64,000 nucleotides of DNA from a virus: the UHGV virus genome UHGV-0112973; one strand, given 5' to 3'. Below, piece after piece: positions 1,053-8,137 of this stretch (the stretch's first letter is position 1; each line of letters begins with the position of its first letter). The translations under genes were made by a program, and so were the position numbers. Below the pieces are notes generated by a model, which saw only the letters and a list, made by a program, of their open reading frames with translations, was not told the DNA's origin and did no database searches.

Positions 1053-1068
1053 AAATTAATTAGTGCAT
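1053..1068 (-). promoter_or_regulatory. weak C1 operator-like site (AAATTAATTAGTGCAT)
   Basis: About 13/17 match to operator consensus complement, one gap. Confidence 0.3.
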
Positions 1069-1112
1069 GTGTGCTCTTTGATATAGCGCACATTAACATC
1101 GGGAGAATAATC

Positions 1113-1268
1113 GTGTCATCCAAGGCTAATTATGAATCGCTGGCATCGATCATGCCGCGTAATGAACAGGAAACAGATGCTGTAGTGGACCCTGTAATCG
1201 CTGAAATGAATGCTCGCCTGGAGGCTGAATTTGCAGCTGAGAATGAACATACCACGCAGGGCGACTAG
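1113..1268 (+). CDS. small hypothetical protein
   Basis: GTG start after GGGAGA RBS-like sequence; 51 codons; overlaps start of next gene. Confidence 0.2.
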   Translation: MSSKANYESLASIMPRNEQETDAVVDPVIAEMNARLEAEFAAENEHTTQGD

Positions 1269-1872
1269 GACTGTTTTTTGTGTCGGTAGCGGTCCGTCAC
1301 TCACTCGTGAGGACTGTGCTGCTATAGAAAAAACTGGCTGTTCAATCATCGCGGTTAACAATTCCTGGCAGATGTTCGATGACATTTATGCCTTATACGC
1401 CGGTGATTTGTCATGGTGGAAGCAATACGGATCCACCATACCGGGAGGGAGATTCCGCAAAGTGACAGCCAACCTGGCGGCGGCGAAATCATTTTCGTTG
1501 GAGTACAGGCGATATTGTGGACCGGCGGAAGGGGTAAATAGCGGCGCGCAGGCTATCAGTCTGGCTGCTGAATCAGGGGCTGAAGTAGTGGTATTAGTCG
1601 GCTATGACTGTTCTCTGCAAAACGGCCTTCATTGGCATGGCGCGCACCCTCAAGCCCTACGGAATCCAACGCAGGTTTCTATTTCAAAATGGCAACAGCA
1701 GTTCCTGGATACCCGCAAAAAACACGCAGATTTACATATTTTGAATGCAAGTAGGAGCAGTGCAATTCAATGTTTCCCAAGAATAAATTTAGAGGCAGTG
1801 ATCGCGTTATTATCGTCGGCAGTGGCCCAAGCGCCGCAAACTTTGTTGCGCCGCGCGGAGTGCCGATTATAG
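1243..1872 (+). CDS. GSGPS-motif Rossmann-like protein, paralog 1
   Basis: N-terminal VFCVGSGPS...IIAVNN motif shared with the next ORF (VIIVGSGPS...IIAVNG); start at internal ATG chosen. Confidence 0.4.
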   Translation: MNIPRRATRTVFCVGSGPSLTREDCAAIEKTGCSIIAVNNSWQMFDDIYALYAGDLSWWKQYGSTIPGGRFRKVTANLAAAKSFSLEYRRYCGPAEGVNSGAQAISLAAESGAEVVVLVGYDCSLQNGLHWHGAHPQALRNPTQVSISKWQQQFLDTRKKHADLHILNASRSSAIQCFPRINLEAVIALLSSAVAQAPQTLLRRAECRL

Positions 1873-2396
1873 CGGTCAATGGGGCCATCGACTGGCTGAA
1901 CCGCGCTTCTTATTTTTTCACACTTGATCCATCGCCAGACAATATGCGGCGCGTTGGTCGTGGCCGCCGTCGCCGTGGTGTTTGTTATTGCATGGCACTA
2001 CCCGATGTTAAAGAACGTGAAGTCAGAGACGGCGTTCTGTGCTTCCGTCGTGTGGCTGAACGTGGCATGGAGCCAAAAAATACGAATTCTCCCGAGTGGT
2101 GGGCGTGGCGCTGGTCCGCACATTTCGGACTTTGCGAAGATGAGAATGAAATTGCCAGCGGCAATAGTGCATATGGCGCTCTGAACCTGGCTTTCCATAT
2201 CGGATTCAAACATGTCGCCCTGGTGGGCGTTGACGCTACACAAGAACCACGCGTTCACTCCGGCGGCACGCCAAAAAATCTAAGTCACCTGCCTTTGTTA
2301 TTCCAGTCTGCGCGTGAACGGATTGACGTTGTTTCATGCGGGAAAATGGGAGGTATTCCGCAGATGACTCTTAAAGAATGGCTGAAGAATACATGA
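1770..2396 (+). CDS. GSGPS-motif Rossmann-like protein, paralog 2
   Basis: 208 aa; paralogous to previous ORF; ATGA overlap with the downstream phosphatase gene. Confidence 0.45.
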
Positions 2397-3070
2397 TGGC
2401 ACCCACAATTTATCACCGTATCGACGGTACCAAATACAGGAATGTCTGGGTTGTTGGTGATCTGCATGGTTGCTACACCAGACTGATGTCCGAACTCCAT
2501 CGTGTGGATTTTGACCCGGCGCAGGATTTACTGATATCGGTCGGCGACCTTATCGATCGCGGTACTGAAAATGTCGAATGTCTGGAACTATTGCAGATGC
2601 CCTGGTTCAGGGCAGTGATGGGGAACCATGAGCGGCTGATGATTGATGCGTTAAGTCCAGATGGCAACGTGAATAACTGGCTAATGAATGGCGGACAATG
2701 GTTCTTCATGCTGGACACTGATCAGGAAATATTAGCCTGGGCGCTGGTGGAGCTGGTAAAGCGTCTGCCCTATATCATTGAGTTGAACACGGGGCAAGAA
2801 ACTATCGTTATAGCCCATGCCGACTATCCGGATAATGAATACCAATTCGGTAAGGAGGTGCCGCTTTTCAACGTTGTCTGGGCGCGCGAGCGTATCAGTG
2901 ATTCGATGGATGATATTGGTGGCGAAATTTTGGGCGCAGATCGTTTTATCTTTGGTCACACTCCGGTGAAAAGCCCGAAGACATTCTGGAATCAGCAGTA
3001 TATCGACACTGGTGCCGTATTTTGCGGAAACCTGACATTGATGAAAGTGAAAGGTGATGGTGCAGCATGA
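2393..3070 (+). CDS. Ser/Thr protein phosphatase (calcineurin-like metallophosphoesterase)
   Basis: Motifs GDLHG, GDLIDRG and GNHE in the canonical order and spacing of lambda-PPase-type phosphatases. Confidence 0.7.
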
Positions 3071-3768
3071 AGATTGCTTTAGTTTTTCGCTCTGGTGGTG
3101 ACTATAACGCTTCCGATGTGCAGTGGCTGGTTAATCAACTGCCAAAAGGCTATGAAATTATTTGCCTGACAGACCTGAAGCGTTTACATGTACCTGGCGT
3201 CAAAGTTGTCCCATTGATCAACCAGTGGCAAAAGTGCCGTGGCTGGTGGGCGAAAATCGAGTTGTTCCGACCGGATATAACCGATGATCTGTTCTATCTG
3301 GATTTGGACACGGTTATTGCCGGTGATATACGCCCAATCCTAGAGCATCCACCAACCAGCTTCACCATGCTTAGGGATTTTTACCATCCACAATATCGTG
3401 GCAGCGGTGCCCTGTGGATACCAAATAGTGTTAAAGCGCATATCTGGAGTTCATTCTGGCAAGATCCGGAAGGTTGGATTTCTCGTTGTGTCACTACTGA
3501 GTGCTGGGGTGACCAGGGGTTCTTACGAAAGGTTATGGGCGATGATACACCAGCATTTCAGGATCTGTATCCAGGATGGTTTGTAAGTTACAAGGCCGAT
3601 GTTGTGGAACCTGGTTCAAAATATGCGAGCGCGCGTTACTCCAGGGGGAATGGGGCATTACCAAAAGACTGCCGAATAATCTTTTTCCACGGCAAACCGC
3701 GACCTCGCGAAGTGTCAGAGGATTGGCTTCCCCTTATCAGCTCATTTTTTGAGCGAGAATCAGAATAA
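3067..3768 (+). CDS. hypothetical protein with DxD-like motif (possible nucleotide-sugar transferase)
   Basis: 233 aa; YLDLDTVI segment; ATGA overlap with upstream phosphatase gene; no firm family assignment. Confidence 0.3.
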
Positions 3769-3769
3769 T

Positions 3770-3786
3770 ATTGCTCTAATAATTCC
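3770..3786 (+). promoter_or_regulatory. C1 operator-like site (ATTGCTCTAATAATTCC)
   Basis: Core ATTGCTCTAAT exact; forms an inverted pair with site at 3819-3835. Confidence 0.55.
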
Positions 3787-3818
3787 ATATTTTTAAAGCG
3801 TGATGTACACTCATCGCG

Positions 3819-3835
3819 TTTTTTATTAGAGCAAT
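3819..3835 (-). promoter_or_regulatory. C1 operator-like site (TTTTTTATTAGAGCAAT)
   Basis: Reverse-orientation operator 32 bp from the previous one; just upstream of ORF starting at 3850. Confidence 0.55.
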
Positions 3836-3849
3836 CTACAAGGTGCACT

Positions 3850-4068
3850 ATGTGGCCATTCCGACGGAAATATCACTACTGGCTGATCGCCTTTGTTACG
3901 CCGACCGGCGGTATCAGGCATGTCATCACCAGGTATCGCAACAAGAGACTCACCTTAGCCAGAATTTTACAGGCTGCCATAGGTGAGGGACTGGATACAA
4001 ATTGCGTAGTCCTTCCTCCTTCATACTTAGGAAAAATGACCGAAGCACAAGCTAATACGGAACTTTGA
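3850..4068 (+). CDS. small hypothetical protein
   Basis: 72 aa; ATG preceded by AAGGTG; first gene after the operator pair. Confidence 0.3.
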   Translation: MWPFRRKYHYWLIAFVTPTGGIRHVITRYRNKRLTLARILQAAIGEGLDTNCVVLPPSYLGKMTEAQANTEL

Positions 4069-4069
4069 A

Positions 4070-5332
4070 ATGAGCACTTCAGCACAAAACCAATCAATCG
4101 AAAATGTATGTATCCCTGATGTCCTGAATGCCGGTATCCCGGCCATTATCCAGAACATCCGGGCCGCGCAACGCCGCGTTAGTTGTGATGACCTCACAGC
4201 ACGTTTTTTTGATAATGCGGTTCAGTCAGCGGAGATGCTTCACGCACAGCTTATTGATGTTTATAACGCAGAAGCTGATAGCCATAACTCCCTGGTAGAT
4301 GCAGCTGAAAATATGCAGTTGGATCTCGGTCTGAAGGGTAAAGAAATTGAAGAGCTTCAGCTGGAAATTGAACATTTGAAACGCCAGCAACAGGACGCGA
4401 TCGACGATGCGACGCATGACGCCAACCAGCGTGCTGATAATGCCGAACGTATAAGCATTGAGCTGGAAACAAAACTCAATGAAATGACCGCGATGGTTGA
4501 ACTGCGGAACTCACAGATTTCAACGCTAAAATCTCAATATAAAGAGATCATGAAACTTGATCCTTTTAACCTTGAGAAACGCTATAACAAAGCTAAAAGC
4601 GAGCGACAGGAACTGCGTAAGCAAGTCGCCGACCTTAACCAACAGCTCAAAAAAACTATTAAAGATGCAAGCGAGGCGCGCGTGGCATTTGCTAATAAAA
4701 AAGCAGAGGTTACCGCGCTGGTTAATGAGAATGCCAAATTTGCGACGCTCAAGAAGGAAATGTATGGCATTACTGAGCGCCGTTTCCCTGCAAGCAAACT
4801 TCATCCGACGTTAGGGCAAATCTCCTTCTTCCCGCGCCTCCTGGCTTATGGGATCTCATCGCCTAAAGAGTTCAATAACGAGCGTCCTTATATCGTTTCT
4901 AAGCTGGACTTTGCTTATCAGTTCTGCTGCGACATGGGCTATGCCATTGATATCCGGATCAACGAATGGTTGATGCCAAACTTCCAGCCGTTGGCCATTT
5001 TCCGCGAGTTCCAGCCGGAAGGTTGGGTAGAGTTCTTCCATGAATTGATCTGTAAAGAGATGGAAAGCCGCCGCCCGGAACTGGTCCGTCGTGTCGAGTG
5101 GGCGCAAGAGGTTATGTTGGCAGATGCAGAGCTACCGTTCGAACCGGAATTTATTGATGAACTGGCAACTAAAGGGTTGCATACCCTGTTTGATGTGGTT
5201 ACCCGCCGTCATGAGCAGTTGGTTGTCGAATTGGGTTTAGAGGAAACAGCGGCAAGAAGACTTCTCGATGTTTGCTATGCACGTAGCGATGCATGGGAAA
5301 AAGAGAACGGCGGCACTATTTACGTCCGCTGA
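4070..5332 (+). CDS. hypothetical coiled-coil protein
   Basis: 420 aa; long heptad-like central region (LQLEIEHLKRQQQD...); followed by a hairpin terminator. Confidence 0.45.
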   Translation: MSTSAQNQSIENVCIPDVLNAGIPAIIQNIRAAQRRVSCDDLTARFFDNAVQSAEMLHAQLIDVYNAEADSHNSLVDAAENMQLDLGLKGKEIEELQLEIEHLKRQQQDAIDDATHDANQRADNAERISIELETKLNEMTAMVELRNSQISTLKSQYKEIMKLDPFNLEKRYNKAKSERQELRKQVADLNQQLKKTIKDASEARVAFANKKAEVTALVNENAKFATLKKEMYGITERRFPASKLHPTLGQISFFPRLLAYGISSPKEFNNERPYIVSKLDFAYQFCCDMGYAIDIRINEWLMPNFQPLAIFREFQPEGWVEFFHELICKEMESRRPELVRRVEWAQEVMLADAELPFEPEFIDELATKGLHTLFDVVTRRHEQLVVELGLEETAARRLLDVCYARSDAWEKENGGTIYVR

Positions 5333-5365
5333 TAGTTACAGTGTCACTTTTAATGCTGGTGGAGT

Positions 5366-5397
5366 GCGCCTACCAGCATTTTTTTTCGTCCAATGAG
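5366..5397 (+). terminator. rho-independent terminator (hairpin GCTGGTGG...CTACCAGC + T-run)
   Basis: GC-rich stem followed by TTTTTTTT immediately after the 4070-5332 ORF. Confidence 0.55.
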
Positions 5398-5405
5398 GAG
5401 GGCAT

Positions 5406-5912
5406 TTGAGTATTTTCAATAAACACGCACACCAGGAACGTCCGTATATCGTCATAGTCGATATTGATGGAACAATATCAGAGGCAACTGAAGACAGACT
5501 GCATTTGCTTCCGCCACTAGGTAAAGGTGCATTAACAAAGGACTGGAACGAGTTTAATCTCGCCTGTGACACCGATACTCCCATCACTCCAGTTATTGAT
5601 ATGGTGCGCCAGTTATTTAACGTTTACACGGTCTGGTTTGTAACCGGGCGCTGTGAGATCGCAAGGGATAAAACACGAGTCTGGCTGCGGAAGTACGTAA
5701 CAAACGGGGCTGAGCCTTTGCTATCTATGCGTCCTGCCACCGATGACAGAAATGACGGCCCAGCAAAGATTGATCTCCTTAAGAAAATTGGTCTAAGTAA
5801 AATCGCGTTCGCGCTGGAAGATAAGATTGAAGTGGCGCGTGTTTTCAGGAGGCACGGCGTGCTTACGTTAATGGTCAGGGAGTATGAAAATGCGCTTCTT
5901 CATCAACAATAA
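5406..5912 (+). CDS. HAD-superfamily phosphatase-like protein
   Basis: 168 aa; N-terminal VIVDIDGT (HAD motif I DxDGT); TTG start after GAGGAG. Confidence 0.45.
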   Translation: MSIFNKHAHQERPYIVIVDIDGTISEATEDRLHLLPPLGKGALTKDWNEFNLACDTDTPITPVIDMVRQLFNVYTVWFVTGRCEIARDKTRVWLRKYVTNGAEPLLSMRPATDDRNDGPAKIDLLKKIGLSKIAFALEDKIEVARVFRRHGVLTLMVREYENALLHQQ

Positions 5913-5928
5913 TTGCTCTAATAAATCT
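5912..5928 (+). promoter_or_regulatory. C1 operator-like site (ATTGCTCTAATAAATCT, 16/17)
   Basis: Near-consensus operator upstream of ORF 6107. Confidence 0.6.
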
Positions 5929-6106
5929 TGATTTTTAAAACAGGGAAAGTGAAAATAAAAACATGCCGCAAGGCGCGGCATGTATCCAATCAATCACAGG
6001 AGCTGAAAATATGAACACGGCATTCAAAATCATTATGGCCGCGATCTATTTCTGGCTGTTCTCTATCACTTTTGGCGGCATCGTCGCGCATGGGTAAGGG
6101 GGATGC

Positions 6107-6685
6107 ATGAAAGGCGAAGTGAAAGAGCGCGGCATGATTTTCAACGATGAGATGGTCCGGGCAATTCTTGGCGGGAATAAAACACAGACTCGCAGGATTG
6201 TTGAAGAAAAATTCTATGGACGGGCAGTGGCCGCAGAGTTGCTTGCTAAGCATTGTCCATATGGTCAACCGGGCGATCGTATTTGGGTTCGCGAAACCTA
6301 CCGGGTACATGGCAAAGCGACGGACGTCGCAACGCTGGTTTATCGCGCAAGCGTGCGTAACTCCTGGACAGAACAAACGCACCGGGTTCCGGTCGAGGTT
6401 TGTAATAAACCAGTATCAGAAAAGTGGACGCCATCAATTCACATGCCGCGCTGGGCATCGCGCATTCTTCTGGAAATTACCGACGTGCGTGTGGAACGGC
6501 TGCGTGATATGAGCGAGGCAGATGCTAAAGCAGAAGGCGCATCTCCGGCGATGTACAAAATTACGCCGCCGGAAGCTGTTTATCGCGTTGGTTTTGGTGA
6601 TATCTGGCGCAGTATTTACGGGCAGGATAACTGGCTATCTAACCCGTGGGTATGGGTAATCGAGTTTAAGCGCATTCAGGAATAA
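6107..6685 (+). CDS. ASCH-like (PUA-fold) domain protein
   Basis: 192 aa; N-terminal EMVRAILGGNKTQTRR block typical of prophage ASCH-domain proteins. Confidence 0.45.
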   Translation: MKGEVKERGMIFNDEMVRAILGGNKTQTRRIVEEKFYGRAVAAELLAKHCPYGQPGDRIWVRETYRVHGKATDVATLVYRASVRNSWTEQTHRVPVEVCNKPVSEKWTPSIHMPRWASRILLEITDVRVERLRDMSEADAKAEGASPAMYKITPPEAVYRVGFGDIWRSIYGQDNWLSNPWVWVIEFKRIQE

Positions 6686-6768
6686 ACCGTGAGTATGCAT
6701 CAAATCGTCAGTTTTTCAGGTGGACGAGCATCGGCCTGTCTCGTTCATCTGTTCGAAGAGGTAGTGGC

Positions 6769-6972
6769 ATGACAATCGTAAAAACCCATACCGGCACCGT
6801 GATCACCAAAGACGGTCCGCAGGTAAAAAAACTGCACCAAACAGAGCGGATGTGGGTCGTCGGCAAAAATGAGTTTTACCACAAAGATACCGGACGCCGC
6901 CATTTTGCAGAAAATACGCGCCGCCGACTGCTGTTAGACACCATCAAGCCTATCGAGGTGAAGCATGTTTAA
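6769..6972 (+). CDS. hypothetical protein
   Basis: 67-aa ORF, ATG start, tightly packed with the next gene. Confidence 0.3.
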   Translation: MTIVKTHTGTVITKDGPQVKKLHQTERMWVVGKNEFYHKDTGRRHFAENTRRRLLLDTIKPIEVKHV

Positions 6973-7204
6973 ACAGAACGAAAAAGCTATCGCTCAAATT
7001 GCTGATTATATCCCGCGTGCGTGCCGGGGTATGCAGTTGCAGGAAGCCAAAGCGCGCCTGGAGAAAAAAATTGCGCTCTATATTGATGACGGCTGTGATG
7101 CCGCCGTTCTTAACGCGGCGTTCGCACCAGCTCTTAACTGTCACACTCGGGAGTCTTTTTTTTCATGCATCGAAGCGCAACTCCGCAAAGGAGGCAACCA
7201 GTGA
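6965..7204 (+). CDS. hypothetical protein
   Basis: 79-aa ORF; start overlaps stop of previous ORF. Confidence 0.3.
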   Translation: MFKQNEKAIAQIADYIPRACRGMQLQEAKARLEKKIALYIDDGCDAAVLNAAFAPALNCHTRESFFSCIEAQLRKGGNQ

Positions 7205-7926
7205 GCCAGATTGATTATCAAAAGCTTCGTGAAATCGCTGAAAAAACAAAAATTGCCGGTGAAGCACCTGTAATGCCTTTCGATCAGCGAATTAATGCGC
7301 TTAACGATTTTATGAAGCACTTTTCGCCAGATATCGCGCTGGCATTGTTGGATGAACGGGAAAGAAACCAGCAATACATCAAACGCCGCGACCAGGAGAA
7401 CGAGGATATTGCGCTTACGGTTGGGAGGCTGCGCGTTGAGCTGGAAGGCAAAGACAGCAAAATAGCCAATCTTACCGCCGAACGCGATGCTCTTCGCGAA
7501 GGTGAGATAGGCGACGCCAGGCATAGCAACACACGGGCCGCAGCTGATATCTACTTCCAACTGGTCGAGGAGTGCGAAATTCCTGCTGGCGGATCTCTGG
7601 TCGAGTACGTTGACGATATGCGCGAGAAGCTGGAAGCCGCAGAGAAGCGCATTGCAGAACTGGAAGCACGGGAAATAAAACCAGCCAAAGGCGAAGTTCT
7701 TGTCGTTGTCTCTGGTTTTACTGGTTGCGGGAAAAGCGCCATTGCCGGGGAAATAGAAATTGCGATGAAAGCTATTGGTGTGCCGGTTCAATGGACTAAT
7801 GGCGATGCAGAAAAGCATATGACCGGCGCTGACTGGCTGACAGCGATTGAGATGTACAAACCAACTGTGCGCATCGTGGAAGTTAATGTGCCACGCGCCG
7901 CTGGCATTCGCATCAAAGGAGAGTGA
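7201..7926 (+). CDS. coiled-coil protein with C-terminal P-loop-like motif
   Basis: GTG start 9 nt after GGAGG; coiled-coil centre; SGFTGCGKSA resembles Walker A (GxxxxGKS). Confidence 0.35.
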   Translation: MSQIDYQKLREIAEKTKIAGEAPVMPFDQRINALNDFMKHFSPDIALALLDERERNQQYIKRRDQENEDIALTVGRLRVELEGKDSKIANLTAERDALREGEIGDARHSNTRAAADIYFQLVEECEIPAGGSLVEYVDDMREKLEAAEKRIAELEAREIKPAKGEVLVVVSGFTGCGKSAIAGEIEIAMKAIGVPVQWTNGDAEKHMTGADWLTAIEMYKPTVRIVEVNVPRAAGIRIKGE

Positions 7927-7927
7927 T

Positions 7928-8137
7928 ATGGCTATTGCCGCAAGTTACACCATGCATCTCTATTGTGACTGCCGCCAGTGTACGGAAGGTGTATATCCAG
8001 TGCCAGACTTCGGTGAGTATATCGGTACGTCATGGTCTGGTTGTGCAAAAGAGGCGCGCAAGGATGGCTGGCGAATAAGCAAAGACAAAACGCGTGCTTT
8101 TGCGCCCGGGCATAAAGTTTTGAGGATTAACAAATGA
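7928..8137 (+). CDS. small Cys-containing hypothetical protein
   Basis: ATG after AAGGAGAG RBS; about 69 aa; stop overlaps next gene start. Confidence 0.3.
   Translation: MAIAASYTMHLYCDCRQCTEGVYPVPDFGEYIGTSWSGCAKEARKDGWRISKDKTRAFAPGHKVLRINK

Follow-up and report, generated by a model that had tools for sequence, protein, structure and literature searches.

Virion glycosylation is reported to be non-essential in mycobacteriophages; there and in chloroviruses it is reported to decorate virion proteins, and it is not needed for basic infectivity. Synthesis of 3-deoxy-D-manno-octulosonic acid (Kdo) is predicted for the giant viruses CroV and Fadolivirus; the use to which this Kdo is put is not known (PMC9614988). 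Here we compare these and other systems with three genes, pmgO, pmgP, and pmgQ, close to the beginning of a 64,000-nt stretch of the UHGV virus genome UHGV-0112973 (one strand; the whole stretch is referred to below as the window). What is new is that these genes form a conserved, naturally fused module that many phages of Gram-negative bacteria carry, in most cases near head/neck genes. We infer that their products very probably constitute a glycosyltransferase machine.

The first 6.1 kb of the window are ~98% identical in nucleotide sequence to phage P1 (AF234172 78383-84543), and also to P7, RCS47, SJ46, and other P1-like phage-plasmids. Seven open reading frames (ORFs) on the + strand, at the place singled out in an earlier note on this sequence, are equal in length to their P1 counterparts. 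The stretch is collinear and nearly identical with P1 79.5-84.3 kb, in ORFs and C1 operators alike, and the ORFs correspond gene for gene (P7 names in parentheses) to pmgO (hdmB), pmgP (hdmC), ppp, pmgQ (hdmD), pmgR (shtA), pmgS (shtB), and pap; upstream are pmgL, pmgM, the operator Oppp, and pmgN. There is no substantive difference between the window and P1 or P7 in the genes from pmgO to pap, the operators, or the promoter. The region consists of long-known, annotated P1 genes, so no unannotated feature is involved.

The published labels for these genes (“putative morphogenetic,” “head morphogenesis,” “sheath”) are nevertheless placeholders, in a phage that is among the most used in genetics. 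Gonzales et al. (2022) made in-frame deletions among 29 genes, including pmgN, pmgO, pmgP, pmgQ, pmgS, ppp, and pap (PMC9024508): all mutants but ΔpmgR plaque normally, and restriction is normal on EcoA, EcoB, and EcoK hosts, while ΔpmgR, which can be complemented, leaves heads and tails unjoined. The CRISPR interference (CRISPRi) map of Piya et al. (2023) likewise has pmgO, pmgP, ppp, pmgQ, pmgS, and pap as non-essential (PMC10695390). In a published P1 study, PmgO, PmgP, PmgQ, PmgS, Ppp, and Pap are not among the virion proteins discussed, with an HHpred table that covers virion-associated or essential proteins only. Our literature searches found no functional study of PmgO, PmgP, PmgQ, or homologs. 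The earlier note had considered that these might turn out to be P1 pmg genes with established morphogenetic roles; they are indeed those pmg genes, but an established role of this kind is contradicted by the knockouts for all of them except pmgR, the others being dispensable.

A Co-Travelling Triad

On our best reading the region is a composite rather than a single pathway, and its functional core is PmgO, PmgP, and PmgQ. The three genes lie in the window as follows, with ppp between the second and third:

1243..1872, + strand: pmgO; the annotated start is 1210, and homologs favor a later start such as 1243
1770..2396, + strand: pmgP; -1 frame overlap of 103 nt with pmgO
3067..3768, + strand: pmgQ; 233 aa

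Relatives were gathered from collections of genomes and of viral contigs, in which each P1 protein was then sought with a hidden Markov model; since scanning the viral contigs with the P1 PmgP profile returned near-identical P1-like sequences only, a non-P1 query was used for the rescan. In ~45 diverse loci PmgP is accompanied by PmgQ wherever the contig is long enough, and by PmgO in most cases. These loci, in which gene order varies, are spread over Gamma-, Beta-, and Alphaproteobacteria and Bacteroidota. Carriers include Enterobacteria, Pseudomonas-type hosts, Zhongshania, Microbulbifer, Methylophilaceae, Brevundimonas, and Sinomicrobium (Bacteroidota), and all named hosts of the family are Gram-negative. 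The remaining genes of the region (ppp, pmgR, pmgS, and pap) belong to P1-like elements alone, being absent at every non-P1 triad locus; ppp is missing from two P1-like lineages as well (L005 and L130).

The three proteins also occur as natural fusions, with each other and with further domains:

P0051: PmgO-PmgP
P0221, P0295: PmgP-PmgQ
P0309: PmgQ-PmgP
P0270: PmgQ-PmgP-SAM (S-adenosylmethionine) methyltransferase
P0299: methyltransferase-PmgP
P0332, P0343: PmgP with a second MptE-like domain

Recurrent extra partners are an FkbM-type methyltransferase (7 loci), a SAM methyltransferase (6), and a fourth GT-A-like protein (6). Together, the co-occurrence, fusions, and partners point to one multi-enzyme glycan-building machine with PmgP as its hub. 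By the same distribution, the phosphatases Ppp and Pap do not appear to be part of it. The modification pathway proposed in the earlier note, in which transferases and phosphatases worked together, is thus still the best reading for pmgO, pmgP, and pmgQ, but not for the two kinds of enzyme as one pathway, only the triad co-travelling in the ~45 loci.

Folds and Families of PmgO, PmgP, and PmgQ

The motif VGSGPS is present in both PmgO and PmgP, which had been described as two Rossmann-like paralogs with a GSGPS motif. A BLASTP comparison between them is marginal (E=0.003); profile-profile comparison gives 98% probability (E=1.6e-13, over 161 columns) and bears the description out: by this measure they are genuine, if distant, paralogs. 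PmgO belongs to PHROG 4603 (E=4e-74) and PmgP to PHROG 2111 (E=4e-132). Invariant motifs in PmgO are GPS, N39, D55, NSG, GYDCS, and HWH, and the two paralogs have in common the series GxGPS ... VN ... D ... NS(G/A) ... G(Y/V)D ... H. Mean column identity of PmgP is high, 59% across genera and 49-59% across phyla.

Both proteins have a fold in common with Maf, the glycosyltransferase (GT) family GT42, and MptE, together with the N-terminal GxGPS (the AlphaFold2 model of PmgO has a mean predicted local distance difference test score, pLDDT, of 87.7). Neither reaches the threshold of the Pfam MptE-like family PF01973 (34.6 bits), PmgO scoring 23.7 and PmgP 21.0 bits. Relatives do pass it, among them the PmgP half of a fusion (44.6 bits) and P0259 (44.1 bits), and many homologs have a precomputed PF01973 match. 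In NCBIfam, there is no model for PmgO, PmgP, PmgQ, PmgR, or Pap, and no window protein matches the WaaZ_KDO_III model TIGR04437 (cut-off 200 bits); the PmgP half of the PmgO-PmgP fusion gives faint matches to it (20.3 bits). Alignment of the PmgO/PmgP family with E. coli WaaZ by hhalign has a probability of 8-15%, and covers the nucleotide-binding helix-strand-GxD element. Sequence and profile searches of the PDB with PmgO, PmgP, and PmgS gave nothing useful.

PmgQ, from its own phage family (PHROG 1962), has a GT-A fold (AlphaFold2 model pLDDT 94.5), to which solved GT8 structures are the closest. It had been noticed as a DxD-containing protein, and the guess of a transferase fold was right: the DxD motif, D79-L-D81, is invariant, and D79, D81, H208, G209, P211, and P213 are invariant in 33 homologs. 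With E. coli WaaJ, hhalign gives E=3.6e-4 and places the DxD and H-x-G-x-x-[KR]-P motifs in register. No Pfam family matches PmgQ at E<=0.1, Glyco_transf_8 included, and the best PDB sequence match is 6MW5 (E=0.086). These features suggest a GT8-like, metal-dependent, retaining GT-A hexosyltransferase. PHROG and RefSeq name PmgO “alpha-2,3-sialyltransferase,” which rests on fold resemblance only; this label is unsupported because, to our knowledge, E. coli K-12 makes no CMP (cytidine monophosphate)-sialic acid. PmgO, PmgP, and PmgQ are therefore best described as fold-level relatives of known families that form phage families of their own.

Candidate Donors

CMP-activated ulosonic acids are the donors for those enzymes of the PmgO/PmgP fold that are glycosyltransferases (Maf, GT42, and WaaZ, the last placed here by weak similarity), and CMP-Kdo is the only CMP-ulosonic acid made by all these Gram-negative hosts. 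Two P1-like lineages, L005 and L130, carry a true kdsB gene (CMP-Kdo synthetase; TIGR00466, 270 bits vs. a 155-bit cut-off) in a slot after pmgS. From kdsB, the WaaZ matches and alignments, the Gram-negative hosts, and the single shared CMP-ulosonic acid, CMP-Kdo seems the likely donor for PmgO and PmgP; UDP (uridine diphosphate)-hexose would be that for PmgQ.

The interval between pmgS and pap is a variable cargo slot (window 5332-5406; L005 11494-13425; L007 12098-12964; L130 12854-13974). It holds just a hairpin in P1 and the window; L007 and L092 have an Rv2179c-like 3′-5′ exonuclease and a 101-aa ORF there, and KdsB occupies it in L005 and L130, the very lineages in which ppp is missing. 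A viral contig search found no relatives of the phage KdsB.

Genomic Context and the Proposed Acceptor

For clues to the acceptor, 357 neighboring ORFs from 31 non-P1 loci were clustered. The commonest neighbor families are portal, large terminase (TerL), prohead protease, HK97-type major capsid, head-tail connector, and head-closure proteins, in the usual order terminase, portal, protease, capsid, [O, P, (methyltransferase), Q], connector. The triad is inside the head/neck module in at least 10 related lineages; this is not so in P1 or the window, where it adjoins a single such neighbor, the head-tail joining gene pmgR. In several independent lineages (L111, L112, L129, L133) triad genes are interleaved with connector/closure genes. 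Between the pmgO and pmgP homologs of two of these is a gene for a closure-like protein bearing a ~300-aa Ser/Thr/Gly-rich C-terminal extension (L129 6895-8178; L133 1631-2899), which is a candidate glycosylation substrate.

Other positions are beside the lysis cassette, between Rz and terS (in Citrobacter phage phiNP), 3′ of the Q antiterminator, and at the portal/terminase end of P2-like prophages, and one 198-kb contig has the triad as part of a larger glycosyltransferase cluster; all of these are likewise late-transcribed. There is a non-phage setting as well: in the chromosomes of Pseudescherichia and related Enterobacteriaceae (L094 2235-14873; also L095-L098), the triad is interleaved with an inverse autotransporter adhesin (IAT_beta plus seven Big_1 domains) and other giant proteins with Big_1 or RCC1 repeats.

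We propose that PmgO and PmgP act as a pair, probably a heteromer, of transferases of the Maf/GT42-sialyltransferase/WaaZ type using CMP-Kdo, and that PmgQ would add a hexose from UDP-hexose. Their joint product would be a short glycan, to which SAM or FkbM methyltransferases and the fourth GT-A-like protein would contribute in many relatives. The acceptor would be a head/neck protein of the phage particle, glycosylated in the cytoplasm during assembly, and the decoration would be dispensable in the laboratory. A virion-protein acceptor is best supported because of the head/neck context, because Maf is a protein O-glycosyltransferase, and because of the mycobacteriophage precedent. We put the probability that the triad acts on virion proteins with these donors at roughly 35%. 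The fullest form of the proposal (a hitherto unrecognized, widespread virion-glycosylation machine of Gram-negative phages, placing a Kdo-containing glycan from the host lipopolysaccharide (LPS) precursor pool on head/neck proteins, with P1 particles themselves glycosylated) is more doubtful.

A number of observations weigh against virion glycosylation. In P1 the triad is outside the head module, behind a C1-repressed early promoter, and some relatives have it in moron-type positions (beside the lysis cassette, after Q, or at the end of P2-like genomes) or, in L105, amid MazG-like, ribonucleotide reductase, and dCMP deaminase genes. The literature reports no glycan on the P1 virion, nor does a 3-4 Å cryo-electron microscopy study of the phage mention one. 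WaaZ is only weakly similar, at 8-15% probability, KdsB is found in two lineages only and not consistently next to pap, and the PmgO/PmgP fold also includes pyrophosphokinases. Finally, the high conservation of PmgP across phyla is more what one would expect with a universal acceptor, such as Kdo2-lipid A or DNA, than with a virion protein, which varies.

Other Readings of the Region

The first alternative is remodeling of the host envelope. PmgO and PmgP would add Kdo, like WaaZ, and PmgQ a hexose, like WaaJ or WaaO, to the LPS core on the cytoplasmic side of the inner membrane; as a result the P1 receptor, the outer core, would be altered or truncated, leading to superinfection exclusion or to fewer progeny lost on cell debris. 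The alignment of PmgQ with WaaJ, the weak WaaZ_KDO_III matches, and the KdsB of two lineages all fit, as do the restriction to Gram-negative hosts and the moron-like sites near lysis or tail genes (L004, L103, L118, L120, phiNP), and the conservation of PmgP would suit Kdo-lipid A as a universal acceptor. The WaaZ-dependent third Kdo goes with loss of the terminal outer-core disaccharide (PMC6358824), a link that keeps LPS core remodeling a serious candidate. On the other hand, most lineages have the genes in late head/neck operons or under C1 repression, implying expression late in a dying cell and not in a lysogen, and LPS already at the surface is beyond reach from the cytoplasm. No membrane-associated component typical of conversion modules was noted, the interleaving with connector genes is unlike a conversion moron, and homology to WaaZ and WaaJ is at the fold level only. 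On balance we consider an LPS acceptor unlikely.

A less probable alternative is that PmgO and PmgP are not glycosyltransferases: they would be MptE-like or thiamine-pyrophosphokinase-like (pyro)phosphotransferases, or regulators, with a small molecule or a host protein as target. The sub-threshold Pfam matches are to the mixed MptE-like family, which agrees with this. It leaves aside several features typical of glycan assembly, namely the obligate pairing with a GT8 enzyme, the fusions to it, the GT-A-like protein, and the FkbM methyltransferases, as well as KdsB, which supplies a CMP-sugar.

Modification of phage DNA or of the nucleotide pool, with the glycan built on a base, seems very unlikely. 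GT8-like GT-A enzymes do extend 5-hydroxymethylcytosine (5hmC) glycans in some phages (bioRxiv 10.1101/2023.12.21.572611). The L105 triad with its nucleotide-metabolism neighbors would be at home in such a pathway, and DNA would be another universal acceptor to match the cross-phyla conservation. No hydroxymethylase, TET/5mYOX-type, or ThyS-type partner was seen, however, in the neighborhoods examined, where the recurrent neighbors are structural genes and methyltransferases and contexts are mostly structural, not replicative. Decades of restriction mapping and cloning of P1 DNA have given no sign of hypermodification that we know of; restriction by EcoA, EcoB, and EcoK is unaltered in the deletions. 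The earlier note had named DNA, nucleotides, or host proteins as targets: for P1, DNA is the least likely of the targets considered, with protein, and possibly LPS, likelier.

The weakest alternative, that all seven genes, both phosphatases included, serve one coordinated modification pathway, has in its favor that the P1 genes are adjacent and ATGA-coupled, that pap is translationally coupled to kdsB in L005, and that a HAD phosphatase, KdsC, carries out a step in Kdo synthesis. It is nevertheless highly improbable, and the co-occurrence analysis appears to refute most of it: outside P1-like elements the triad is not followed by ppp, pmgR, pmgS, or pap, L005 and L130 lack ppp, pap is not by kdsB in L130, an operator-flanked promoter and a terminator-like hairpin divide the region into units, and Pap is of the PNKP type, with no NCBIfam match, KdsC included.

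Gene Layout and Regulation

The pmgN-pmgQ operon is controlled, according to the P1 annotation, by the C1 operator Oppp. The features at its beginning, and its remaining gene, are:

~1014-1040: PpmgN, predicted sigma-70 promoter, preceding Oppp
1053..1069, - strand: C1 operator Oppp (old name Op83); position carried over from the P1 annotation, 4 mismatches to the operator consensus
1113..1268, + strand: pmgN; 51 aa (65 aa from GTG 1071); overlaps the pmgO start; phrog_2350
2393..3070 (alternative start 2378), + strand: ppp; ATGA-coupled on both sides

The P1 annotation also has a late promoter, LPpmgL, upstream of pmgL and so of the operon. The description of this cluster as early is therefore correct as to its C1-repressed promoter, but incomplete. 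Similarly, four genes had been described as ATGA-coupled; this holds for two junctions, at 2393-2396 (pmgP/ppp) and 3067-3070 (ppp/pmgQ), while pmgO and pmgP instead overlap by 103 nt out of frame.

The GSGPS motif of PmgP is thus encoded, in another frame, within the 3′ tail of pmgO. Out-of-frame overlap of the two genes recurs across lineages (43-133 nt), and the N-terminal nucleotide-binding motif of PmgP is overprinted on the non-conserved C-terminal tail of PmgO. Such an overlap may provide tight translational coupling for stoichiometry. The natural PmgO-PmgP fusion and an A_AAT_TTA heptamer at 1785-1791 also raised the idea that the two genes are joined by a programmed -1 frameshift. The heptamer is absent in L123, L126, and L132, and several lineages have no heptamer at all or have pmgP in the +1 frame; since the slippery sequence is not conserved, this reading was dropped.

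Beyond pmgQ the window has:

3770-3786, + strand: C1 operator OpmgRa, the upstream flank of PpmgR
-35 at ~3771-3776, -10 at ~3794-3799: promoter PpmgR, flanked by OpmgRa and OpmgRb
3819-3835, - strand: C1 operator OpmgRb, the other flank of PpmgR
3850..4068, + strand: pmgR; 72 aa
4070..5332, + strand: pmgS; 420 aa, coiled-coil
5352..5388, + strand: terminator-like hairpin between pmgS and pap; 11 pairs and a T-run
5406..5912, + strand: pap; 168 aa, TTG start
5912..5928, + strand: C1 operator OpmgT (old name Op88); abuts the pap stop codon, 1 mismatch, opens the next unit

An operator-flanked promoter region had been recognized after the fourth gene, and it is accounted for by OpmgRa and OpmgRb around PpmgR. 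The three-gene unit that was thought to follow, ending in a HAD-like DxDGT phosphatase, does end in a HAD protein, but the hairpin at 5352-5388 splits pmgS from pap. The latter has a strong Shine-Dalgarno sequence of its own, GAGGAGGG, ahead of its TTG start. pmgS and pap are separate accessory genes behind their own C1-controlled promoter, pap being additionally behind the hairpin. The window as a whole has 13 C1 operator matches, against 0.22 expected by chance, at a cut-off of 3 mismatches to the consensus; Oppp, with 4, is therefore not among the 13.

Just past OpmgT, at 5961-5983, the - strand has a strong hairpin of 10 pairs, rich in GC and accompanied by a T-run, which may be a terminator for leftward transcription, or bidirectional. 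Similarity to P1 ends after pap: from ~6160 to 8000 the window tracks cargo of the P7/RCS47 type instead, with 92-93% identity to Stx-converting lambdoid phages over 6752-7983, indicating a mosaic cargo region. At the other end, PmgM (468-1046), annotated as “putative morphogenetic,” resembles a VRR-NUC nuclease-domain protein (Pfam E=3e-4, just sub-threshold), with which the RefSeq label agrees.

Genes Outside the Triad

The earlier assignment of a lambda-type protein phosphatase is well supported: Ppp matches lambda phosphatase (PDB 1G5B) over its full length (E=2.5e-94), and Pfam Metallophos at 59.5 bits vs. a threshold of 21.5. It scores under the equivalog cut-offs for E. coli PrpA and PrpB, which marks it as the phage type. 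By these matches Ppp is predicted to be a lambda/NinI-type, Mn-dependent Ser/Thr protein phosphatase. It is a lineage-specific insertion between pmgP and pmgQ in most P1-like elements, and tied to the triad by position only.

Pap (PHROG 415) matches Pfam HAD_PNKP (45.5 bits vs. a threshold of 27.6), with DIDGT at residues 20-24, and is similar to Pnkp1 in the PDB (4XRP, E=5e-4). Only the phosphatase part of its PHROG, Pfam, and PDB relatives is matched, and it has no P-loop kinase domain; Pap is accordingly classed as a putative stand-alone HAD phosphatase of the PNKP type. A role as Kdo-8-P phosphatase, in partnership with KdsB, was considered and rejected: the coupling is found in L005 only, KdsB in L130 being followed by SSB, and the type is wrong.

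PmgS (PHROG 1660) is of the P1 lineage only and has just weak coiled-coil-type matches. PADLOC assigned no defense-system membership, returning only weak coiled-coil matches between PmgS and LmuB. In PmgS and its relatives (window 4070-5332; L005 10200-11450; L130 11598-12857) a GIG/helix-hairpin-helix-like C-terminal motif (IKGVGNSIARLI, IKGIGKELAGTI) can be seen by eye, which hints at DNA binding.

PmgR is a separate, essential head-completion factor. Its possible identity as a diverged head-tail connector/closure protein was tried and rejected, hhalign probabilities against the triad-neighbor families being <1%. For pmgN, CRISPRi indicates an essential gene and in-frame deletion a dispensable one (PMC10695390), a conflict without an explanation so far, the genes downstream all being non-essential.

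Implications and Comparison with Known Systems

The module is common to hundreds of phage and prophage lineages, with PmgP sequences falling into 523 clusters, and since the P1 in-frame deletion mutants already exist, its acceptor is testable. Should this be a virion protein, phages of Gram-negative bacteria would join mycobacteriophages and giant viruses as viruses with glycosylated particles, with a bearing on immune recognition in phage therapy, capsid-sensing defenses, and particle stability; in the fullest form of the proposal, P1 particles, studied for 70 years, would turn out to be glycosylated. If the acceptor were instead LPS, the triad would represent a new kind of receptor remodeling, by way of a phage WaaZ analogue. 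With either acceptor, “alpha-2,3-sialyltransferase” and “morphogenetic protein” are misleading labels in need of revision.

The mycobacteriophage systems and those that glycosylate giant-virus capsids and fibrils resemble the triad in having virus-encoded glycosyltransferases, often accompanied by methyltransferases. The enzyme families and hosts differ, our literature searches found no glycan reported on the virions of P1 or any other triad phage, and the P1 genes are outside the head module. Phage DNA glycosylation systems (the alpha- and beta-glucosyltransferases of T4; the 5hmC pathways) likewise have clusters of several glycosyltransferases, and GT8-like enzymes add the second sugars in 5hmC pathways. 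The triad differs from these in that no base-hydroxymethylating partner was seen with it, in that it lies mostly among structural genes, and in that the knockouts show no change in restriction.

Among individual enzymes, PmgO and PmgP are minimal, single-domain proteins (~200 aa) without the flagellin-binding domains of Maf, and are distinguished from Maf, GT42 (CstI/CstII), and WaaZ (GT73) alike by forming an obligate paralog pair with a GT8 partner. That partner, PmgQ, is in turn shorter than other GT8 proteins (glycogenin, LgtC, WaaJ/WaaO, GlyE, Gat1), and is always paired with PmgP, to which it is sometimes fused.

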